Shown: piece after piece, positions 2,440-55,265 of the stretch
How positions within the stretch are numbered: the first letter of the stretch is position 1
Layout: every line of letters starts with the position of its first letter
Assembly: GCA_045113315.1 (NCBI GenBank)
Contig: JBGUIX010000006.1
Span: 168,756-232,755 of the forward strand
Reading direction: 5' to 3'
Length of the DNA stretch: 64,000 nt
Source of the DNA: Bacilli bacterium
Lineage (GTDB): Bacteria > Bacillota_I > Bacilli_A > RFN20 > CAG-826
Program-made: the position numbers and the translations under genes
The notes under the pieces: model-generated
The model's input: only the letters and a program-made list of their open reading frames with translations
Databases searched by the model: none
Told to the model about the DNA's origin: nothing

Positions 2440-5034
2440 ATGCTTGAAAAAAGATATGATCCGCACAAAGTTGAAGAAGGAAAATACGAGACTTGGAAGT
2501 CTAAAGGATATTTCACCGCTGGTGATAAATCTAAACAAGCTTTCTCGATGGTTATTCCTCCTCCAAATGTGACGGGTAAACTACATATTGGACATACTTG
2601 TCAAACCACAATCCAAGATATCGTAGCTAGATATAAAAAGATGCAAGGATATGACGTTTTGTGGCTCCCAGGTATGGATCACGCTGGTATTGCCACCCAA
2701 GCGAAAGTGATGGAGAAACTCCGTAACAACGGAGTGGATGTCACTAAAATCACTCGTGAAGAATTTCTAAAAGCGGCTTGGGGATGGAAAGATGAATACG
2801 CAAATAACATTCATTCTCAATGGGCCAAGATGGGTTTATCTTTAGATTACACTAGAGAGAGATTTACTCTTGATGATGGACTTAATTATGCCGTTAGAAC
2901 TGTCTTTGTATCTTTATACAATAAAGGATTAATCTATCAAGGTGAAAGAATCATCAACTGGGATCCAGTGCAGATGACCGCGTTAAGCAATATTGAAGTC
3001 ATCCACCAAAATGACCCCGGCCAAATGTTTTATTTTAAATACAATGTGGTGGGTGAAAAAGACTATTTAATCGTCGCCACAACTAGACCAGAAACCATGT
3101 TTGGTGATGTCTGTGTGGTTGTTAACCCCAAAGATAAAAGATATAAAAAATATGTTGGTAAGAAGGTTATAAATCCAGCCAATGGTGAACAAATTCCAGT
3201 TATCGCTGATGAATATGTTGATATCTCCTTTGGAACAGGGGCGATGAAATGTACACCTGCTCATGATCCTAATGACTTTATCATCGGTGAAAAATATCAT
3301 TTTGAAAAACCAATCATCTTTAATAAAGACGCAACGATGAATGATAAGTGCGGTAAATATCAGGGCATGGATCGTTTTGAATGCCGTAAGGTTTTAGTAG
3401 AAAACATTAAAAAAGATGGTAATTTCATCAAAATTGAAAATATCGTTCACCCAGTTGGCCATTCTGAAAGAAGCCATGCGGTTGTTGAACCGATGCTTTC
3501 TAAACAGTGGTTTGTGAAGATGAGACCTTTAGCCGATCAAGCTTTGGCTAATCAAAAAACTAGTGGCAAAGTTGACTTTGTTCCAAGAAGATTTGAAAAG
3601 ACTTTCATCCAATGGATGGAAAATGCGGAAGACTGGTGTATTTCTCGTCAGTTATGGTGGGGACACCGCATTCCTGCTTATTATAATAAGCACACTGGCG
3701 AAGTTGTCGTTAGCATGGATCCACCAAAAGATATGGAAAATTATGAGCAAGAGAGCGATGTTTTAGACACTTGGTTCTCTAGTGCTTTATGGCCATTCTC
3801 TACTTTAGGTTGGCCTAATAAGACTGAAGATTTTGAACGTTATTTCCCAACCGACACAATGGTTACTGCTTACGATATTATCTTCTTCTGGGTCTCTCGT
3901 ATGATTTTCCAATCCTTAGAAATGAATCACGTTAGACCGTTTAAAGAAGTGGTGATTCATGGTTTAGTAAGAGATGAACTCGGTCGTAAGATGTCTAAAT
4001 CATTAGGTAATGGTGTCGATCCAATCGAAGTTATCGATAAATATGGCGCGGACGCTTTAAGATATTTCTTAACCACAAATGCGGCGCCTGGACAAGATAT
4101 GCGTTATATCGAAGAGAAGGTCATTGCCTCTTCTAATTACCTCAATAAAATCTGGAATTCAGCGAGATATGTCCTTTCAGTTTTACCAGAGAAATTTGAA
4201 CCAAAAGAGGTTAATGTTAAAGAATTATCTCCTCTCGATCAATGGATTATTAATCGTTTAGAAAAGACTATTAAAGCTGTGACCTTAAATATGGAAAAAT
4301 ATGACTTTAACGCAGCGAGTAGTCACTTATATAACTTCGTTTATGATGATTTCTGCTCTGAGTATTTAGAGATGAGTAAAGTCTCTTTATCTTCCGATGA
4401 TGAAAAAGTGAAAAATGTTACTTATCAAACATTATTTAAATGTTTAAAAGATATTATCTTACTTATCTATCCATATACTCCATTTATTGGAGAAGAATTA
4501 TATTTGAATTTACCAGTTCATCTAGAATCTATCATGCTTGAATCTTATCCAAAATATGATGCTCATCTCGTACATTCAATAGTTGATAAACAAGTAGAAG
4601 TTTTATTCTCTATTATTAGAGATGTTCGTAATTATAAGATTGAAAACAAATTAGCGCCTAACGCTAGTTTAGATTTATCTCTTAACTTAAGAATTAAGAT
4701 GTTTGACGGTTATCAAATCTATCTAGAAAGATTTACCTTCTCCAAAGTCAAAGAAGTTGATGATTCGATCGTTAACATGCGTGGTGAACTGAAGATTTAT
4801 GATAACGCCGATTTATTAATCGTTAATGAAGCGGGTAAAGAAGATATCTTAAGAAGAATCGATAAAGAGATTAGCGAAGAAGAAAATGAGATTTTAAGAT
4901 GTCAAAAGATGCTTTCTAATCCAAACTTCATCGCTAAAGCTCCAAAAGAAAAAGTGAAACTTGAAGAAGAAAAACTTAAAACTCATCAAGAAAACTTAGC
5001 TATGCTAAAAGAGAAAAAAGAAAAACTTTCTTAA
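2440..5034 (+). CDS. valS: Valyl-tRNA synthetase
   Basis: Class I HIGH (PPPNVTGKLHIGH) and KMSKS (KMSKSLGN) motifs, C-terminal coiled coil. Start ATG at 2440 preceded by GGAGGA. Confidence 0.9.
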   Translation: MLEKRYDPHKVEEGKYETWKSKGYFTAGDKSKQAFSMVIPPPNVTGKLHIGHTCQTTIQDIVARYKKMQGYDVLWLPGMDHAGIATQAKVMEKLRNNGVDVTKITREEFLKAAWGWKDEYANNIHSQWAKMGLSLDYTRERFTLDDGLNYAVRTVFVSLYNKGLIYQGERIINWDPVQMTALSNIEVIHQNDPGQMFYFKYNVVGEKDYLIVATTRPETMFGDVCVVVNPKDKRYKKYVGKKVINPANGEQIPVIADEYVDISFGTGAMKCTPAHDPNDFIIGEKYHFEKPIIFNKDATMNDKCGKYQGMDRFECRKVLVENIKKDGNFIKIENIVHPVGHSERSHAVVEPMLSKQWFVKMRPLADQALANQKTSGKVDFVPRRFEKTFIQWMENAEDWCISRQLWWGHRIPAYYNKHTGEVVVSMDPPKDMENYEQESDVLDTWFSSALWPFSTLGWPNKTEDFERYFPTDTMVTAYDIIFFWVSRMIFQSLEMNHVRPFKEVVIHGLVRDELGRKMSKSLGNGVDPIEVIDKYGADALRYFLTTNAAPGQDMRYIEEKVIASSNYLNKIWNSARYVLSVLPEKFEPKEVNVKELSPLDQWIINRLEKTIKAVTLNMEKYDFNAASSHLYNFVYDDFCSEYLEMSKVSLSSDDEKVKNVTYQTLFKCLKDIILLIYPYTPFIGEELYLNLPVHLESIMLESYPKYDAHLVHSIVDKQVEVLFSIIRDVRNYKIENKLAPNASLDLSLNLRIKMFDGYQIYLERFTFSKVKEVDDSIVNMRGELKIYDNADLLIVNEAGKEDILRRIDKEISEEENEILRCQKMLSNPNFIAKAPKEKVKLEEEKLKTHQENLAMLKEKKEKLS

Positions 5035-5036
5035 TT

Positions 5037-5091
5037 ATTTTTGAACATTTTACCGATTAACCCCCCTATTTGTGATATAGGAGGGTTTTTT
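5037..5091 (+). promoter_or_regulatory. Conserved leader element, copy A (TTTTTGAACATTT...CCCCCCTATTTGTGATATAGGAGG-N7-ATG)
   Basis: Near-identical copies at 34820-34874 (+) and 59048-59103 (-), all at a fixed distance from an ATG. Contains the SD AGGAGG within a hairpin CCCCCCUAU/AUAGGAGGG followed by a U-run. Confidence 0.5.
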
Positions 5092-5277
5092 ATGAGAAAG
5101 ATCATTTTAACTAAAGAAGAATGTGATAACCAAAAGGTGGGAGAAGCGATTTCCCTAACAGCGGTGATGGCTATTGCGGCGATTGCCGTTATGGCGGTAG
5201 TTGTCTATCGTTTATTCATGTCTGGAAAAGGTGGTGCGACTATTCCAGGTGGATTTAAATTCTCATGGGCGGAATAA
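5092..5277 (+). CDS. Hypothetical 61-aa single-pass membrane peptide
   Basis: ATG 7 nt after AGGAGG. MRKIILTKEECDNQKVGEA, then a TM helix ISLTAVMAIAAIAVMAVVVY, then a Gly-rich tail. The TAA stop is 1 nt before the radC TTG start. Confidence 0.4.
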   Translation: MRKIILTKEECDNQKVGEAISLTAVMAIAAIAVMAVVVYRLFMSGKGGATIPGGFKFSWAE

Positions 5278-5278
5278 T

Positions 5279-5959
5279 TTGTCTAAGATTAATCACTTAC
5301 CGTTATTAGATAGACCTAGAGAGAAAGCTTTTCGTTATGGGATTGATAAATTATCAGACCACGAATTATTAGCCTTATTAATTGAAAGTGGGACGAAAGA
5401 AGAATCAGCGGTTGATATCGCTTATCGAATTATTAGTGCTTCTAACGGTTTAGTTTATCTATTTCAAAAGCCATTCTCTGATTTGACATACTTTAAGGGA
5501 GTGGGAAACGCTAAAGCTATTAAAATAGCCGCTTCTTTTGAAATTGCCAAAAGACTGATGATTGCTAGTGAAGAAAAGCCATATGTTTTAAAGGGAGAAG
5601 AAATCGCGGAGAAATATATCAAAATATTAAATGGATTAACTCAAGAAAGTATGTATCTAGTGATATTAGATAAAAAGAAGAAGATAATCCATGAAACTAA
5701 CATGTATCGCGGTAATGAAAGTAGTTTAAATACTTCCTATCGACAAATACTAAAAGAAGTCATCATCCATAACGGTTCTTATTTCTATATAGTTCATAAT
5801 CATCCAAGTGGAGATGCATTACCAAGCGAGGAAGATATCTTTTTTACGTCAGGAATTATTCATGAATCGAAGAAACTAAAACTAAAAATGCTCGATCATT
5901 TCATTATTGGAAAGGGTCAATACTACTCATTTCTACATTCGAAGATGGTCATAATATAA
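5279..5959 (+). CDS. radC: RadC-like JAB/MPN-domain protein (UPF0758)
   Basis: N-terminal (TTG)SKINHLPLLDRPREKAF matches the RadC consensus. HNHPSGDALPSEED is the JAMM motif. TTG start at 5279 preferred over the ATG at 5201, which overlaps the upstream peptide ORF. Confidence 0.75.
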   Translation: MSKINHLPLLDRPREKAFRYGIDKLSDHELLALLIESGTKEESAVDIAYRIISASNGLVYLFQKPFSDLTYFKGVGNAKAIKIAASFEIAKRLMIASEEKPYVLKGEEIAEKYIKILNGLTQESMYLVILDKKKKIIHETNMYRGNESSLNTSYRQILKEVIIHNGSYFYIVHNHPSGDALPSEEDIFFTSGIIHESKKLKLKMLDHFIIGKGQYYSFLHSKMVII

Positions 5960-10215: not shown

Positions 10216-10770
10216 ATGATCTATTTTCTTAAAGGTAAAGTTACTTTAAAAGATAAAGATACATTAGTAATTGACGTCAGAGACGTCGGTTATCAAGTTT
10301 TAGTGTCTCATATCGATGACTATAACATCGGTGATGAAGTTTTAATTTATACCTATAATGTCGTTAGAGAAGATGAACAATATTTAGTGGGTTTCTCTTC
10401 TTTAGAAGAAAAATCAGTTTTTCTCTCTTTAATTAAAGTAAAAGGCTTAGGTCCAAAAAGTGCGATTGGAGCCTTATCTTCAACTTCTCCACAAGAAGTG
10501 ATTAATGCGATTGCAAGCAACAATGTTGCTTATTTAAAGAAATTACCAGGTATTGGGGCCAAAGCTGCCGCTCAAATTATCTTAGATTTGAAAGGTGAAT
10601 TAACCGGTGGCACTAAAGGCGATCCAACCGTTTATGATGAAGTTTACGAAGCTCTTAAAGGTTTAGGATTTAAAGGTGCGGCGATCGACCGTGTCTTAGC
10701 AACAATTAATGAACCTGGAGCGAGCAGCGAAGACATCTTACGTATCGCATTAAATAAATTAAGGAAATAA
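10216..10770 (+). CDS. ruvA: Holliday junction helicase subunit RuvA
   Basis: HhH motifs ([12 protein letters not shown]; [12 protein letters not shown]); ruvA-ruvB arrangement. Confidence 0.85.
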
Positions 10771-25276: not shown

Positions 25277-25343
25277 TTTATAAACAAAGTTTATAATAAA
25301 AACTGATAAAATACTAAAAAACTACTAATTAAGGAGATTAGAA

Positions 25344-29528: not shown

Positions 29529-29567
29529 TTGAAAATAGTTATTTATTAGTACATTTTTAGTATAGAT

Positions 29568-31459: not shown

Positions 31460-32647
31460 ATGGCAAAAGTTATCGTCCATATCGATTTAAACGCTTTCTT
31501 TGCAAGATGTGAAGAAATCCGCGATCCCTCTTTAGAAAATAAACCGGTGGCTATTGGCCATGATGGTCGAGGTGGGATCGTTTCTACTTGCTCTTATAAA
31601 GCGAGAGAGTATGGCGTCTCAAGTGCGATGCCGATGTTTAAGGCCAAAGAACTATGCCCTAACCTCATTATTAAACCAGTCGATTTTAGGTATTATGGGG
31701 CACTTTCTGATCAATTTAAGAATTTTATCCGTCGATACACAAAAAAGGTCGAAGAAGCCTCAATAGATGAGTGTTTTGCGGATTTTACTGATGTGGTAAG
31801 AGGTCAGAAAGACGTTATTGGCTTTTTTAAGAAACTTCAGAACGATTTATATAAAGAAACAAAACTTAAATGTTCTATCGGAGTGGCGACCACGAAGTTT
31901 TTAGCAAAGATGGGTAGTGATTATAAAAAGCCGATGGGATTAACGATTATTAGAAAAAAAGATATTCCTGATATTTTATATCCTTTAAAAATTGAATCGA
32001 TGTTTGGGATCGGCAAAAAAACTAGTCCTAAATTAAGAAAAATGGGTATCAACACCATAGGTGATCTAGCGAAAAGATGTGAAAAAGATGACCGCGAACT
32101 AATGGATGAGTTAGGTAAATATTATTACGTCATCAAAGATTGGGTGAGTGGCAAAGGGAGCGATGAAATCATCGTTGAGCCCGAAGATCCGAAATCAATT
32201 GGTAATTCTACGACACTGATGGAAGATACGATGAATCACGAATTGATCGCTTCCACTTTTAAGTGGTTATCTAAAGAAGTCTCTGAGAGAGCGATAAGAG
32301 AAAATAAACTCGGCTCTACGATTCAAATCGTGGTCAAGGAAAGCGATTTTAAAGTTCATAATAAATCGATAACCTTTGATAACCCCACAAATGATGCCGA
32401 TACAATTTTTAATATTGCGATGAATTTATATGATAAAAATTTCTCTAATATGATGATTAGATTAGTGGGTGTTACTTTACAAAACTTAATAAATACTAAA
32501 GATATCGCCATTCAAATGAGCTTATTCGATTATGAAAAGCACGAGGAACAAAGTTCCACAAAGCTATTAATAAATGAACTCAATAGGAAGATGAAAAAGA
32601 AGGTTTTAATTAGAGCTAGCGAGGTAGAAGATGATGGAAATAAGTGA
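31460..32647 (+). CDS. dinB: DNA polymerase IV (Y-family)
   Basis: IVHIDLNAFFA...SIDECFAD catalytic motifs. Confidence 0.85.
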   Translation: MAKVIVHIDLNAFFARCEEIRDPSLENKPVAIGHDGRGGIVSTCSYKAREYGVSSAMPMFKAKELCPNLIIKPVDFRYYGALSDQFKNFIRRYTKKVEEASIDECFADFTDVVRGQKDVIGFFKKLQNDLYKETKLKCSIGVATTKFLAKMGSDYKKPMGLTIIRKKDIPDILYPLKIESMFGIGKKTSPKLRKMGINTIGDLAKRCEKDDRELMDELGKYYYVIKDWVSGKGSDEIIVEPEDPKSIGNSTTLMEDTMNHELIASTFKWLSKEVSERAIRENKLGSTIQIVVKESDFKVHNKSITFDNPTNDADTIFNIAMNLYDKNFSNMMIRLVGVTLQNLINTKDIAIQMSLFDYEKHEEQSSTKLLINELNRKMKKKVLIRASEVEDDGNK

Positions 32648-33527
32648 CGCTGTAGAACTATTTCAACAATATCTTCTCGTAGAGAAAGGCTTGTCCAAAC
32701 AAACCGTTGATTCCTACACTAAAGATATAAAACTCTTTTTAGATATTTTTAATGGTGAAAGAAAAACCGTTGAAGATTTAAAAGGAGAAGATTTAGGGGA
32801 AATTGTTCGCTATGAACTAACGGTTCCAAAGCCACCTCATACAGTGACAACGGCGATTAGAAAATTATCGTCAGTGAAAAACTTTTTCCTCTTCTTAAAA
32901 AGAGAGGGATATTTTATAGGTGAAATACCGAATATAGAACCACCTAAAAAACCAGAATATCTTCCTAACTGCTTATCCGTGGAAGAAGTTGAAGAATTAT
33001 TGAACGCTCCTAATATTGAAAAACCTGACGGATTAAGAGATCGAGCTATGCTTGAAACTATGTATGCTTCTGGTTTACGTGTTAGTGAATTAGTTTCTTT
33101 AGAAAGAGCGAGAGTAAATCTTAATAAGGCCATCATTACTGTTTTTGGTAAAGGCAGCAAGGAAAGAAAGGTTCCTCTTGGAGATTTTGCGATAGAATAC
33201 ATCAAAAAATATATTGAAGAAGCGAGAAATAAAAACCAGGGTAAAGATTCTAAATATCTATTTTTAAATAGATATGGTAAACCGATATCTAGACAATATT
33301 TCTTTAAACAAGTGAAAAAATACGCTGCTCAAGCAGGGATTGAGGTTTCTATTTCCCCACATACATTACGGCACTGTTTTGCCACTCATCTTTTAGAAAA
33401 TGGCGCTCAGTTAAGAGCGGTTCAGGAAATGCTTGGCCATACAAATATAGCCACTACACAGATATATACGCACATATCGAGTAAGCGTATTTTGAGTGCA
33501 TATGATTTGTATATGAAGCGCAAATAA
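32631..33527 (+). CDS. xerD: Tyrosine recombinase XerD/XerC-like
   Basis: R..H..R..Y catalytic tetrad region (RHCFATHLL...LGHTNIATTQIYTHI). 17-nt overlap with dinB. Confidence 0.8.
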   Translation: MMEISDAVELFQQYLLVEKGLSKQTVDSYTKDIKLFLDIFNGERKTVEDLKGEDLGEIVRYELTVPKPPHTVTTAIRKLSSVKNFFLFLKREGYFIGEIPNIEPPKKPEYLPNCLSVEEVEELLNAPNIEKPDGLRDRAMLETMYASGLRVSELVSLERARVNLNKAIITVFGKGSKERKVPLGDFAIEYIKKYIEEARNKNQGKDSKYLFLNRYGKPISRQYFFKQVKKYAAQAGIEVSISPHTLRHCFATHLLENGAQLRAVQEMLGHTNIATTQIYTHISSKRILSAYDLYMKRK

Positions 33528-34780: not shown

Positions 34781-34800
34781 AATTATTTATATAATAAATA

Positions 34801-34824
34801 AAAGTTGCTTCGGCAACTTTTTTT
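34801..34824 (+). terminator. Rho-independent terminator after deoB
   Basis: AAAGTTGC-TTCG-GCAACTTT + TTTT, running directly into motif copy B. Confidence 0.75.
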
Positions 34825-34874
34825 GAACATTTCGGCTTTTTCACCCCCTATTTGTGATATAGGAGGACTTTTAA
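34820..34874 (+). promoter_or_regulatory. Conserved leader element, copy B
   Basis: TTTTTGAACATTTCGGCTTTTTCACCCCCTATTTGTGATATAGGAGGACTTTTAAATG. Confidence 0.5.
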
Positions 34875-35435
34875 ATGGAAAAGTTTAAAGCAGAAAGAAA
34901 CTATAGCTACGATTATGGCAGTAAAGTAGCAATAAAGCAGTCAGGAATGAGAGAACAATTAGACTGGATAAAAAGGCAATTAGAATACGTTTCTTTTTCA
35001 GAACAGTATTATCTAAGATACGATTTAAAGAAAGGTGAGATTTACGAATTTGATTGGGGGATTAATGTTAACGCTGAATTCTCGAATAGACATTATGGAG
35101 TCGTTTTAGTGGATTCGGATGTCTTTAATCCCTTAGTAACTGTCTGCCCTTTAAAGACGAATCATGGATCATGTAACAAGAAAAGTGATGTAGATCTAGG
35201 AAATGTTGAATGCTTACGAACAAATAAACATACAATAGCAGTCATCAATCAAATAAGAACGATAGACAAGTTAAGGCTATACATGAAACGGGCTATTGGT
35301 TTAGCAGATTCAAACCCAATTTTTGAGAAAACTGAAAGTGAAAAACGAACGATAAATAGGTTAGAAGATGATAAGCTAAATATGATCATTGATGCCTATA
35401 AAGACTACCTTTCTGGAAATTCCGAAAATGGATAA
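34875..35435 (+). CDS. MazF/PemK/EndoA-fold protein with about 50-aa N- and C-terminal extensions; no adjacent antitoxin
   Basis: Core KKGEIYEFDWGINVNAEFSNRHYGVVLVDSD...PLVTVCPLKT...TIAVINQIRTIDKLRL parallels B. subtilis EndoA ([27 protein letters not shown]...ILLEQIRTIDKQRL). Confidence 0.7.
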   Translation: MEKFKAERNYSYDYGSKVAIKQSGMREQLDWIKRQLEYVSFSEQYYLRYDLKKGEIYEFDWGINVNAEFSNRHYGVVLVDSDVFNPLVTVCPLKTNHGSCNKKSDVDLGNVECLRTNKHTIAVINQIRTIDKLRLYMKRAIGLADSNPIFEKTESEKRTINRLEDDKLNMIIDAYKDYLSGNSENG

Positions 35436-35656
35436 GAGCGATGCATTAGTAGCAAATTAGTAGTTATTTTGGTAAATAGCCTATAAAAATTTGTGTGGAA
35501 AAGTACCCAAATTCAATGTGGGAATTTTAAAAACCGCAAGATACAAAATATAGAAAAATACGATATTATCTAATAAAAATATAAATAAGTTAACATAATA
35601 GAAATTATGCGAAGTAGGTATTTTATAGCGTTTTTCCTCTATTATTGTGTGGATAA

Positions 35657-35680
35657 CAAAAAAAGCACCTTTCGATGCTA
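35657..35680 (-). terminator. Rho-independent terminator for the yqe operon (minus strand)
   Basis: A7-AGCACC-TTTC-GATGCT on the plus strand, which is hairpin + U7 on the minus strand, 23 nt after the nadD-yqeK stop. Confidence 0.5.
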
Positions 35681-35702: not shown

Positions 35703-36785
35703 TTATAAATATTGTTTAAAGCATTTAGAGGTTAACTCATTTTCTATCGATTTATTATGATTTAATAGGAATTCTTTGTTAGCTTTTAAAACAATTTTGA
35801 ATCCTTCCTCGGCATTGTTTTTCATTGCGGTTATTAAATCTGATGAGTCGAATCCTCTTGTTGGCTCGATTTTATCTGCTGCATAAATAATCTTGCCCAT
35901 TAATATCATGTTTGAATTGCCTGTAGCGTGAAATTCAATAGCTTCAAGCATATCTTTATCATCAACTTCAAACATTTTATTGGCTAAATATGCTCCTGCA
36001 AATTGATGATATGCGAATTTTGGTAAATCCTTATATTCACTAAAATGTTCGCAAACGATTTTGTATTGTTCTTCTAAAGGTATGTCTTTACCTAAATCAT
36101 GTAACAATCCAGCAAAATAATATTTTAGTGGTTTATCTAAATTATTTGAAACGGCTATCTCGTATGCTAATTTTGCGACGCTTTTAACATGTGATAGTCT
36201 ATGAGGGGTCAATATTCTGTTTAGCTCCACCATACCTGAATACAAATTATTTTCTACTATGTAGAAAAGAACCTCATCGGGTAATTCTAGACTCTTTAAT
36301 TCTCTAATTTTTGTGGACGAAACATCATAGTCATCTCCTAAAATAGGCATCATTTGATATTTTTTGACGTTTTCGTCATTAATCTGATGTCCCGGTCTTT
36401 TATAGAAGATGATTTTTGCGAGTTTTGATAATTCTTCCGCTTCTTTCCATCTATGAAATTCGTTCACTTGATCCGCACCGATAAGGTAAAAGATGTTATC
36501 CTTTGGATATTTTTCCTTCATATAGCGGATTGTATCGATGGAATAATTGATTTCTTTACTACTATTAAGTTCATAATCATCAATATGAAAATGTTTATGA
36601 CCCTTAATAGCGAGTTCTAACATTTTGATTTTATCTTCTCTAGGAGCGGAAGAATCTTTCCATACGGAAATACGTGCCGGAAGGAAAAATACGTCTCCAT
36701 CGAGCGCTTTTGCGGCTTTTTCGGCCATGTTGATATGACCGTTATGGACCGGATCGAATGCTCCACCGAAAATAATTCTATTCAT
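35703..36785 (-). CDS. nadD: Fused nicotinate-nucleotide adenylyltransferase NadD + HD-domain YqeK
   Basis: N-terminal half GGAFDPVHNGH (nucleotidyltransferase HxGH). C-terminal half an HD domain (LSHVKSV...LLHDLGK). Single 360-aa ORF. Confidence 0.8.
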   Translation of the reverse strand: MNRIIFGGAFDPVHNGHINMAEKAAKALDGDVFFLPARISVWKDSSAPREDKIKMLELAIKGHKHFHIDDYELNSSKEINYSIDTIRYMKEKYPKDNIFYLIGADQVNEFHRWKEAEELSKLAKIIFYKRPGHQINDENVKKYQMMPILGDDYDVSSTKIRELKSLELPDEVLFYIVENNLYSGMVELNRILTPHRLSHVKSVAKLAYEIAVSNNLDKPLKYYFAGLLHDLGKDIPLEEQYKIVCEHFSEYKDLPKFAYHQFAGAYLANKMFEVDDKDMLEAIEFHATGNSNMILMGKIIYAADKIEPTRGFDSSDLITAMKNNAEEGFKIVLKANKEFLLNHNKSIENELTSKCFKQYL

Positions 36786-38863: not shown

Positions 38864-38929
38864 GTTATTTTACAAAACTAATAATGTACTAATAAACTAC
38901 TAATAATATTTTTAACATACTATGTATGT

Positions 38930-44420: not shown

Positions 44421-44451
44421 TAGTCCAAGATTAGTATTAAATTAGTAAAAT

Positions 44452-48501: not shown

Positions 48502-49347
48502 ATGAAAGTTGAAATCTTAAATCCTAAAGCTTACTGCGCTGGTGTATCTAACGCCATCTCTTTAGCCTTAAAAGTTAGAAAATATAACCCTAACAAAGAG
48601 GTCTATGTTTTAGGAATGCTTGTTCATAACAACTTTGTTGTTAAATCATTAGAAAAACAAGGTATTCAATCTGTTAATAAAATAGAAGATATTCCTGATG
48701 GGCAAATTGTTATTTTTTCAGCGCACGGGCACAAAAGAGAACTTGATGCCATCGCAAAAGAGAAAAACCTCACTATTTATGATTCAGTTTGTCCAAAAGT
48801 TTTGCATAACATTAAATTAATCGAAGAAAACCTAGAAAAAGGCCATCAAATTATCTATATTGGGCAAGCAGGTCATCCAGAGGCCGAAGCATGCTTATCG
48901 CTTTCAAAGAAAGTGATACTTTATGATAAAAATGTACTAAAAAACTACCAATTAATAAATGACGAATCACCTCTTGTGATCAACCAGACAACACTCAATA
49001 TTTTGGATATAAAAAAGGATCACGAAGACATTTTAAAGGTGTTTCCGAAAGCTAGAATTGCTGACGAGATTTGTGGCTCCACTAGATTAAGACAAAAAGC
49101 GATCACAGATTTATCTACTGATGTAGATTTAATCATTGTTGTGGGTGATCAAAAATCAAGCAACAGCAAACGTTTATTAGAAATCGCTAGGTCCACTCAT
49201 CCTCATGTTTCTTCCGTAATGATTTCTGATGCTAGCGAATTAGATGTTTCTTTATTGTTAAATAAAAACCACATCGTTATCTCCAGTGGCGCGTCCACTC
49301 CTAACGAGATTATTGATGAGGTTTATAATCGTATTATTAATTATTGA
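48502..49347 (+). CDS. ispH: 4-hydroxy-3-methylbut-2-enyl diphosphate reductase
   Basis: LytB-family conserved Cys (CAGV; CPKV) and SSNS motif. Confidence 0.85.
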   Translation: MKVEILNPKAYCAGVSNAISLALKVRKYNPNKEVYVLGMLVHNNFVVKSLEKQGIQSVNKIEDIPDGQIVIFSAHGHKRELDAIAKEKNLTIYDSVCPKVLHNIKLIEENLEKGHQIIYIGQAGHPEAEACLSLSKKVILYDKNVLKNYQLINDESPLVINQTTLNILDIKKDHEDILKVFPKARIADEICGSTRLRQKAITDLSTDVDLIIVVGDQKSSNSKRLLEIARSTHPHVSSVMISDASELDVSLLLNKNHIVISSGASTPNEIIDEVYNRIINY

Positions 49348-53846: not shown

Positions 53847-53888
53847 ATAACAAAGTTATAAAATTACTAAAAAAATACTAATAAAATA

Positions 53889-55265
53889 CTAGAAGAATGT
53901 TTTGACTGATAAGTATTTAACAAGTTCATTAATTGGTAATCTAATCTGTTGCATAGTGTCTCTATCTCTGATGGTAACGGAGTTATCGTTAGGTGTATCA
54001 AAGTCCACTGTAATACAGAATGGAGTACCGATAGCGTCTTGACGACGGTATCTCTTACCGATACTACCGGTATCGTCGTAGACGACATTTAAATATTTGC
54101 AGAGAATGGTTTCAATTTCTTTCGCCTTCTCTTCTAATTTTTTACTTAAAGGTAAAATTGCGGCTTTATATGGAGCTAGAGCTGGGTTTAAATGCATGAC
54201 TATTCTAGTTTCGTCATCATTGCCCACTTTTTCTTCATCATAAGCATCGCATAAGACCATTAAAACCAAACGGTCTAAACCGACGGATGGTTCGATACAA
54301 TATGGAACATATTTCTCTTGTGTTTCAGGATCTAAATATTCTAAAGACTCACCACTATATTCCATATGACGTTTTAAATCGTAATCGGTACGATCGGCAA
54401 TACCCCAAACTTCGCCCCAACCGAATGGGAATAAATATTCGATGTCTGTTGTGGCTTTGGAATAGAAGGCAAGCTCCGCTGGTTCGTGATCACGATATCT
54501 TAAATTTTCTGGTTTAATGCCTAAAGAATCGACAAAGCTTAAGCAATGTTTCTTCCAATAATCAAACCATTCTAAGTCTTCACCTGGTTTGCAGAAGAAT
54601 TCTAATTCCATTTGGTCAAATTCTCTGGTTCTAAAAGTCATTTGCCCTGGAGTAATTTCATTTCTAAAAGCACGACCAACATTACAAATACCTAAAGGTA
54701 ATTTCTTTCTGGTGGTACGAACAACGTTTTTGAAGTTAACGAACATACCTTGTGCAGTTTCAGGTCTTAAATAAACCGCTGATTTGCTATCTTCGGTAAC
54801 ACCGATATGAGTTTTAAACATCATATTGAATTGACGAATATCAGTGAAGTTTTCGCTGCCGCAGTGTGGACATTTGACATGGTTTTGATGGATAAAATCC
54901 ATCATTTGATCATTTGTCATACCATTTACATCTGCTTCTGGGAACTGTTCTTCAATTAATTGGTCCGCTCTAAATCTTTGTTTACATTTTTTGCAGTCAA
55001 TTAATGGATCGTTAAACGTTTTGACATGTCCAGTAGCTTCCCAAACGCGTGGGTTCATTAAAATAGCAGCGTCGATACCGACGTTCATTGGACATTCTTG
55101 GACGAACTTCTTCCACCACATTTTGCGGATGTTCATCTTAATTTCACTACCTAATGGTCCATAGTCCCAAGTATTGGATAAACCACCGTAGATTTCACTA
55201 CCCTGATAATAATAGCCTGAGACCACAAAGTGGTTACAAACCTTATCAAATTCAAATTTTGCCAT
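53889..55265 (-). CDS. glyS: Glycyl-tRNA synthetase (single-chain class II)
   Basis: Class II motifs (FRNEITPG; GLDRL); 458 aa. Confidence 0.9.

Follow-up and report, generated by a model that had tools for sequence, protein, structure and literature searches.

Background

MazF toxins are known in the textbooks as the products of two-gene, mobile addiction or stress modules. The present analysis concerns a MazF-like gene, here called long-MazF, that lies within a stretch of 64,000 nucleotides (the window) of a Bacilli bacterium (GTDB lineage Bacteria; Bacillota_I; Bacilli_A; RFN20; CAG-826; GenBank assembly GCA_045113315.1, contig JBGUIX010000006.1, positions 168,756 to 232,755 of the forward strand). 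The clade to which this gene belongs departs from the textbook picture in having no antitoxin, a His-based site, an extra helix, a housekeeping-like vertical inheritance and a position at the side of the chromosomal dimer-resolution site dif, a place that ranks among the most constrained on a chromosome. Long-MazF is real; it belongs to a known family as an unusual member, its chromosomal address is unexpected and very tightly conserved, and any function given to it here is a proposal.

The closest described proteins are the MazF/EndoA (YdcE) and PemK toxins of Bacillus and Staphylococcus (structures 4MDX, 7BXY, 4HKE and 4MZM), with which long-MazF shares the barrel, the Pfam family PF02452 and a strand of the NQIRTIDKLR type. 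Unlike these toxins, long-MazF adds a 50-residue N-terminal helix and a ~20-residue insertion before the last helix, has His in place of Arg25 and probably Lys-Thr/Ser at Thr48, and is without a MazE/PemI gene, being fixed at the replication terminus beside dif rather than mobile. Arg25 and Thr48 are key catalytic residues of Bacillus MazF, and the MazFs of M. tuberculosis include Lys-for-Arg and Ser-for-Thr variants at these positions, mutation of which impairs activity (PMC7354611).

The "PemK-like" or "MazF-like" proteins of phages (PHROG 1412 and 1936; BFVD models of 180-266 aa) share with long-MazF the N-terminal helix, the barrel and a G-x-H-Y motif, and they too are without a consistent protein antitoxin and adjoin a site-specific recombination function. 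They differ in their greater length (245-290 aa), in a large insertion within the barrel and in their place upstream of an integrase, usually with a unit of small RNA (sRNA) size after the gene, whereas the clade of the window is chromosomal, vertically inherited and located beside dif. MazF-mx of Myxococcus xanthus is reportedly a solitary chromosomal MazF of canonical length that is controlled by an unlinked regulator protein; long-MazF resembles it in having no adjacent MazE, but MazF-mx has neither the N-terminal helix nor the His site nor the dif linkage.

In type III toxin-antitoxin systems the repeat units of the RNA measure ~34-45 nt. The type III toxins (ToxIN, AbiQ, CptIN, TenpIN) are RNases of a MazF/Kid-related fold that have no protein antitoxin and an adjacent tandem-repeat RNA, the repeat array being upstream of the toxin with a terminator between the two and a single promoter (PMC5086642). 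The repeats that accompany long-MazF differ in being 11 nt, downstream of the gene and found at other loci too. This layout of upstream array plus terminator is not found at the window locus, and the protein belongs to the PemK and not the ToxN sequence family: only the PemK profile matches, with no sequence of the ToxN/AbiQ/CptN/TenpN type and no match in PADLOC. Among recombination sites, the Xer core of the plasmid sites cer and psi is flanked by ~100-180 bp in which factors bind at set distances from it. The long-MazF locus likewise has motifs, as candidate binding sites, spaced from a putative Xer core, but here the site is a chromosomal dif at the terminus and the flank is on the XerD-arm side.

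A MazF fold with an added helix and an altered active site

The 186-aa open reading frame (ORF) of long-MazF occupies positions 34875-35435 of the plus strand, as supported by ORF calling, Pfam, homologues and a structural model. An earlier reading of the window, made from the letters and translations without searches (the sequence-only reading), had placed its start at 34820; the ORF that it recognized is real, but that start takes in the leader. In the Pfam scan PemK_toxin (PF02452) is the sole family reported, with 31.8 bits against a gathering cut-off of 23.1 over residues 52-145, and the MazF equivalog of NCBIfam scores 16.2 where 150 is required. The AlphaFold2 model, built with 38 homologues as input and with a mean pLDDT (predicted local distance difference test) of 78.7, predicts a long helix at residues 17-44, a beta core at 55-131, a disordered stretch at 139-156 and a terminal helix at 165-180. 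The best Foldseek matches of this model in the PDB are MazF chains, S. aureus MazF among them (probability 1.00, template modelling score 0.77 normalized to targets of 113-116 aa); there are 52 matches at E<=0.001, and among the 50 matches listed all are MazF-family toxin chains (MazF, YdcE, MoxT). The MazF/PemK fold that the sequence-only reading had proposed is therefore upheld by a Pfam score above cut-off and by structural matches to MazF chains, and the four alignment blocks that it quoted are all recovered by HMMER against S. aureus and Bacillus MazF.

That reading had also described extensions of about 50 residues on both sides of the MazF core. The N-terminal one is real. It contains the helix of residues 17-44 (34923-35006, plus strand), in which W31, R34 and Y38 are invariant in the orthologue alignment, and a match to PHROG 1412 covers residues 15-107. 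A Trp...Tyr helix ahead of the barrel was also read by eye in the sequences of distant relatives, and the predicted helix is a hallmark of a wider "long MazF" superfamily. The C-terminal extension was overstated, being mainly the ~20-residue disordered insertion at 139-156. Since the Foldseek alignments span nearly the whole of the 108-120-aa targets, the modelled helix 165-180 probably corresponds to MazF's own C-terminal helix.

The active site differs as well. Aligned by profile with MoxT of B. anthracis and MazF of B. cereus (4HKE, 7BXY), the protein has no catalytic Arg in the beta1-beta2 loop, and its His73 (codon CAT, 35091-35093, plus strand) falls at the position of Arg25 of Bacillus MazF. 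This His is invariant among orthologues and in a 17-member alignment of distant relatives, in which His and Tyr are both invariant, and it is superfamily-wide, whereas the preceding Arg72 is kept only inside the clade of the window. The ambiguity of the catalytic Arg in the segment NRHYG, which the sequence-only reading had pointed out, was real and is now settled as an invariant His73 aligned to Arg25. Lys94 aligns with Thr48, with Thr/Ser95 one residue on, although the alignment may be shifted by one residue here. In the aligned sequences invariant His73 and, probably, Lys94-Thr/Ser95 thus take the places of the catalytic Arg/Thr pair. The predicted RNA-binding strand of MazF is retained, as NQIRTIDKLR differs little from EQIRTIDKQR of Bacillus MazF. 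Because the relatives share the Trp...Tyr helix, the motif G-x-E-x-x-G-x-H-Y/F and the invariant His and Tyr, the long-MazF group is, on alignment grounds, a distinct clade with a His-based site and no degenerate copy.

Vertical inheritance and the absence of an adjacent antitoxin

A protein search gave 217 full-length homologues of 176-228 aa (167-228 aa among the 120 matches listed); homologues carry the database label "type II toxin-antitoxin system PemK/MazF family toxin". When species-representative genomes were scanned, 63 loci were found, 62 of them in metagenome-assembled genomes of uncultured rumen or gut "Bacilli", "Erysipelotrichaceae" or "Coprobacillus sp. CAG:826" type, a host clade that we take to be the GTDB order RFN20. 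Synteny is found at 62 of the 63 loci, and wherever the contig is long enough the neighbours are constant: dinB, xer and deoB upstream, and a convergent nadD/yqeK-yhbY-yqeH-yqeG operon downstream. The synteny holds where YqeH has fallen to ~30% and NadD/YqeK to ~41% identity, at which distance the long-MazF proteins are still 44-55% identical, and the pairwise ratio of nonsynonymous to synonymous substitution (dN/dS) among orthologues is 0.02-0.19. As judged by these comparisons, the gene is under purifying selection and vertically inherited across an order-level clade of gut and rumen Bacilli, and does not form a mobile type II toxin-antitoxin module of the classical kind.

The solitary status that the sequence-only reading had assigned to the gene extends to its relatives. 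No antitoxin ORF is found upstream or downstream in the window or in ~60 syntenic genomes, no small ORF adjoins the gene at any locus, and the search for a conserved adjacent antitoxin in related genomes, which that reading had named as the finding that would speak against it, found none. The sequence covered was 64 kb of the source genome and 10 kb of each relative, and an antitoxin may be encoded at an unlinked position outside it. Ten further ORFs of the window, mostly small (Asp23-like, NusB, EF-P, YbeY and others, or unassigned), contain no MazE-, AbrB- or RHH-like domain. The downstream spacer holds no conserved small ORF; a 50-aa call in a relative of 96% identity (L001) corresponds to 33 aa in the window.

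Irregularities of the locus were observed among the relatives. At locus L066 (4923-5219) the MazF-like gene is cut to 98 aa and is a probable pseudogene, with dif intact 417 nt further on, so the gene can be lost in at least one lineage. About 25 loci (L009-L012, L026, L027, L033, L036, L040 and others) have an insertion of 1.8-3.1 kb that separates deoB from the MazF-like gene and that in the four annotated loci, L009-L012, encodes a 313-315-aa protein without a Pfam match and an ABC-type permease (BPD_transp_1).

A fixed position beside dif at the replication terminus

When the spacers between the gene and nadD were compared, genomes with proteins of only 30-50% identity proved to share blocks of 93-100% identity, the main one of which is a dif-like XerCD site. 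In the window the site is at 35588-35615 and reads ACTTCGCATAA-TTTCTA-TTATGTTAACT on the minus strand. It is a 28-bp site of two 11-bp arms and a 6-bp centre, and by our own count 22 of the 28 bases match both E. coli and B. subtilis dif (reference sequences from PMC3025954). The 61 sites compared hardly vary in their arms but do so in the centre. With a position weight matrix the window site scores 44.5 bits, true sites score 29-45 bits and the rest of the window does not exceed -5.7, and the site is single-copy in the 64 kb as well as in every 10-kb locus except one, L055. In that locus dif-like sites occur at 5586-5612 and 10302-10329, the second (AATTACATAAAGCGCTATTATGCGAAGT) 4.7 kb past the first, an arrangement suggestive of an element that Xer recombination has inserted at dif, on the far side from the MazF-like gene.

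The GC skew of the window flips from about +0.13 to -0.10 at 34-38 kb, with a cumulative maximum at ~36 kb, and the predicted genes are all on the plus strand up to 35435 and almost all on the minus strand from 35703 onward. Because dif sits exactly at the skew switch, it is predicted to mark the replication terminus. The sequence-only reading had regarded the gene as interrupting a deoB/yqe operon junction; given the skew flip and the strand switch, the two replichores instead end here, one with deoB and the other with the convergent yqe operon, where they meet at the terminus, so that no junction is interrupted by an insertion. Nor does the 267-nt downstream spacer deserve the description of featureless that it had received, since it holds dif and conserved motifs.

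Wherever downstream sequence is available (61 loci), the gene is followed by one dif-like site. Its orientation is constant in 60 of these loci, and the distance from stop codon to dif is 105-176 nt in 59 of them; L066, with its truncated gene, is a distance exception. Long-MazF thus closes one replichore, with 105-176 bp between it and the putative chromosomal dif. The linkage is between gene and dif and not between gene and nadD, for L055 keeps dif downstream of the gene without nadD, and insertions are found upstream of the gene (1.8-3.1 kb) and past dif (up to 1.3 kb) and none between the two. Dif sites of the same type were found on 80 metagenome contigs of widely different base composition, none of which (0/80) has a long-MazF neighbour, so the protein is no general requirement for dif; an apparent relative, L105, proved to be a chance match inside an xer gene.

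Two further interpretations of the site were rejected. The gene does not appear to be recent cargo integrated by Xer, as there is no vestigial second dif upstream, the best upstream match scoring 4 bits compared with the 29-45 of true sites, and an antisense promoter using a dif arm as its -35 element was discarded for lack of a conserved -10 at a fixed distance. A gene for an Xer-type tyrosine recombinase lies 2 kb upstream on the same strand (32631-33527, plus); its orthologues, which carry the Pfam domains Phage_int_SAM_1 and Phage_integrase, are found at the loci of the relatives too. On the other side of dif, a terminator scan places the intrinsic terminator of the convergent yqe operon, whose nadD/yqeK gene ends at 35703, at 35664-35679 of the minus strand. 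NadD (CTP_transf_like) and YqeK (HD domain) are fused in this clade, as a single 360-aa ORF at 35703-36785 of the minus strand in the window.

Phased repeats and boxes between the gene and dif

Cross-locus comparison of the spacer revealed a set of short motifs between the stop codon and dif. Two TTAGTAG repeats, 11 bp apart, begin 11 nt past the stop codon in the window (35446-35463, plus strand). Most loci have 2-3 of these units (2-4 overall), which set in 0-45 nt after the stop and are spaced by 11 in 56 of 68 cases. They are followed by a TGTGGAAAA box at 35494-35502 (plus strand), whose reverse complement, TTTTCCACA, is DnaA-box-like. This box stands at -94 to -97 relative to dif in 34 of 46 loci and one 11-bp step closer, at -84 to -86, in 7, and the TTAGTAG repeats are in 11-bp register with it in 80 of 91 cases. 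A second box, TGTGGATAA, lies 32 nt past dif (35648-35656, plus strand), and the clade of L067-L075 has two boxes, at +21 and +30 after dif. TGTGGAWAA boxes thus flank dif in the same orientation (L015-L076); DnaA-box-like sites are unexpected at a terminus.

The ~96-bp interval between box and dif is not conserved in sequence, and RNAalifold finds no conserved RNA structure between the TGTGG box and dif (0.0 kcal/mol). Since the distance is fixed without either, the interval looks like a spacing constraint on the DNA. Single sequences of this interval fold better than shuffled ones on the plus strand (mean z -2.1), and a terminator-like hairpin that ends 6-23 nt before dif is present in about 17 of 57 loci and absent from the window. 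An Rfam scan of the spacer at E<=10 gave noise only, and literature searches found no described counterpart of such a phased motif architecture beside dif.

The repeats themselves are not confined to dif. Across 560 kb of syntenic loci there are 116 TAGTA-N6-TAGTA pairs where 4.4 would be expected, all of them intergenic and on the sense strand of the genes around them; 66 follow long-MazF, 37 lie between parC and yqeG, and 12 between dinB and xer. TTAGTAG has a leading-strand skew of 10:1, but the strand bias of this genome is strong and many 7-mers are skewed at least as much, so that the test for a word resembling the FtsK-orienting polar sequences (KOPS) is uninformative.

Within the window phased TTAGTA(G) occurs in 11 copies where 0.72 are expected, mostly intergenic, the dispersed copies being at 25312-25328(-), 29546-29562(+), 38876-38903(-), 44431-44447(+), 48935-48951(-) and 53865-53892(-). 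The parC-to-yqeG copy is kept across the clade. Right after the parC stop (~38915-38929, minus strand), ahead of its TTAGTAG repeats, a small palindrome ACATAC-NNN-GTATGT is found in the window and in many, not all, of the relatives shown. The dispersed element could be a 3'-end or untranslated-region signal, or a protein-binding array.

A leader predicted to restrain translation

The 94 nt ahead of the gene contain the terminator of deoB and a leader hairpin and nothing else. The terminator, found by terminator scan at 34800-34821, is a hairpin AAAAGTTGC-TTCG-GCAACTTTT with its T-run on the plus strand, and it is kept in those relatives in which long-MazF directly follows deoB. The sequence-only reading had proposed that the gene is driven by a "motif copy B". 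Such a copy does exist, as a 67-nt leader (34815-34881, plus strand) that is 76% identical to positions 5033-5099, but it is not kept beyond the closest relatives, and no sigma-70-type promoter consensus is detectable within it. What is conserved of the leader is a hairpin that would limit translation instead: by minimum free energy folding the Shine-Dalgarno (SD) sequence GGAGG (34862-34866) is taken up in a stem-loop at 34844-34866 of the plus strand, in which CC.CCUAU pairs with AUAGG.GG. The probability that the SD is unpaired has a median of 0.20 over 51 orthologues, in comparison to 0.60-0.73 for deoB, xer and yqeH, and the stems vary between loci with compensating changes (CCUCCUA/UAGGAGG, CCCUCUA/UAGGGGG, CUUCCUA/UAGGAGG). 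Because this conserved stem-loop with compensating stems occludes the SD, translation of long-MazF seems to be held down in cis.

The second copy of the 67-nt leader (5033-5099), with the same SD-sequestering hairpin, precedes a 61-aa ORF (5092-5277) that lies between valS and a radC-like gene, has a hydrophobic central stretch (MRKIILTKEECDNQKVGEAISLTAVMAIAAIAVMAVVVYRLF...) and matches no Pfam family. Its product may likewise be a small dose-sensitive protein whose translation this hairpin holds back.

Distant relatives in temperate phages

A profile search of 1.8 billion representatives gave 614 relatives, many of 190-300 aa, and those inspected share the Trp...Tyr N-terminal helix and the motif G-x-E-x-x-G-x-H-Y/F. 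Distant long-MazF proteins of 245-290 aa are found in 291 viral contigs, often a few kb from the contig end. For two distant homologues the contigs were too short to give a gene context. A recombinase is encoded within the next 1-3 ORFs in 55 of 78 viral loci examined (43 tyrosine integrases and 12 large serine recombinases), the recombinase being on the same strand in 54 and the immediately next ORF in 36, and an ImmA/IrrE M78 peptidase lies just upstream in 17 of the 78. The wider superfamily is accordingly placed, by gene order, as a component of temperate-phage integration/lysogeny modules. The slot before the integrase in such modules is usually held by lysogen-expressed exclusion or abortive-infection genes.

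The viral loci, too, are without a consistent small protein partner. What directly follows the long-MazF gene in 53 of 71 of them is a promoter-like site and, 69-105 nt further on, a strong terminator. The sRNA-sized unit so delimited, ~20-200 nt after the gene (L169-L248; e.g. L206 3745-3868 and L191 3846-4070), precedes the integrase where one follows and contains hairpins, which in one subgroup form two tandem hairpin repeats; its terminator stem shows compensatory changes, and no Rfam family matches these units. The unit is a candidate RNA partner in the phage branch, a lead and not a result. In literature searches on MazF with dif or the terminus and on MazF in lysogeny modules no paper was found on a dif-adjacent or integrase-adjacent long MazF; matches on these topics included a cassette for counter-selection with mazF and a survey in which MazF genes of staphylococcal phages are noted.

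Explanations for a solitary MazF at dif

The best explanation, to which we give a little less than even chances, is that long-MazF is a phage-derived MazF-like RNA-binding or RNA-cutting protein, domesticated and restrained in cis, with no protein antitoxin. Its ancestor would have belonged to a phage integration/lysogeny module, of which one lineage became fixed on the chromosome of the gut and rumen Bacilli clade. The protein would still bind, and probably cut, single-stranded RNA in a sequence-dependent manner as MazF does, its dose being restrained by the SD-sequestering hairpin in cis and not by a partner protein, and further restraint may come from the UUAGUAG repeats in its own 3' region or from auto-inhibition by the extensions. 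It would serve as a latent anti-phage or stress RNase, or as a post-transcriptional regulator. Of the options that the sequence-only reading had left open, a domesticated RNase, an RNA antitoxin and a non-toxic binder all remain reasonable.

A number of observations weigh against this explanation. Strict positional conservation across an order-level clade is unusual for a defence gene, and the PADLOC library of defence systems has no match for the protein. A His at the position of the catalytic Arg could equally signify that RNase activity has been lost, and the isoelectric point of the family is near neutral (median 7.7). The 64 kb of the window and 10 kb per relative in view leave room for an unlinked antitoxin. 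Finally, a role in RNA alone leaves the rigid DNA geometry between gene and dif unexplained.

Among the alternatives, the one that survives best, although it is unlikely, is a toxic RNase neutralized by an adjacent RNA in type III-like fashion, the antitoxin being the UUAGUAG 3' region in the clade of the window and the downstream small RNA in phages. It draws on the repeats, which start 0-45 nt past the stop, number 2-3 in most loci and keep to the sense strand throughout, on the sRNA-sized units of 53 of 71 viral loci with their compensatory terminator stem and without an Rfam family, and on the MazF/Kid fold that type III toxins share (PMC5086642). However, the repeats are downstream 11-nt units with no promoter of their own, unlike the upstream arrays of type III, and they keep an 11-bp register with a DNA box and with dif; the protein has a PemK sequence profile, with no other Pfam family reported. 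Their presence between parC and yqeG and between dinB and xer, too, is better accounted for by a general element or a set of targets than by a dedicated antitoxin.

Next in order comes the improbable case of a catalytically dead MazF-fold protein kept as a non-toxic scaffold for binding RNA or protein. The loss of the canonical Arg25 would be explained, an antitoxin would be unnecessary, and the strong purifying selection over the full length, helices included, would be expected. Yet the replacement His, Lys and Thr/Ser are invariant and chemically suited to acid-base catalysis, a MazF with Lys for Arg also needs that residue for activity (PMC7354611), and the conserved SD-sequestering hairpin suggests that the dose matters.

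A further alternative is a role at the level of DNA, in which the gene, the phased repeats, the TGTGGAAAA box and dif would form one module and the protein would act with Xer here and with integrases in phages, as an accessory or regulatory factor that modulates or monitors recombination, or that couples cell survival to dimer resolution or element retention. The protein would then be no toxin standing on its own. For this we see a low probability, after that of the scaffold. It would account for a dif at 61 of 61 loci, 105-176 nt from the stop in 59, for a dif that stays with the gene in L055 where nadD is gone, for the lack of insertions between the two, and for a box-dif distance that is fixed, with the repeats in register, although the interval has neither conserved sequence nor RNA structure; the phage relatives also adjoin integrases of two unrelated types. 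On the other hand we know of no MazF-family protein that binds double-stranded DNA, and this protein is not basic. The TAGTA repeats occur away from dif as well, dif sites of this kind serve many phyla without such a gene close by (none on 80 metagenome contigs), and dif is intact in L066 where the gene is truncated to 98 aa. The phage position is moreover the usual slot for lysogen-expressed cargo.

An ordinary type II MazF toxin with a MazE-like antitoxin encoded elsewhere is very unlikely, for although PemK_toxin scores above its cut-off, homologues are labelled as type II PemK/MazF toxins and a fraction of each genome was in view, there is no adjacent antitoxin in ~60 genomes or among the window ORFs tested, inheritance is fixed and vertical instead of patchy and mobile, the catalytic Arg is replaced, an extra N-terminal helix is conserved, and the phage relatives are likewise without a consistent small protein partner.

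Implications

The comparison of these loci locates a putative replication terminus and dif in an uncultured Bacilli lineage, with a MazF-like gene as the constant neighbour of the site. If long-MazF is still an RNase, it would be a toxin tamed by a cis-acting RNA structure instead of by a partner protein, and its site would represent a new His-based MazF chemistry, possibly with a new recognition motif. The wider family is common and uncharacterized in the integrase-proximal slot of Firmicutes prophages, often together with an unannotated sRNA-sized unit. Phage long-MazF and this unit thus make a candidate RNA-controlled MazF system that is directly testable.

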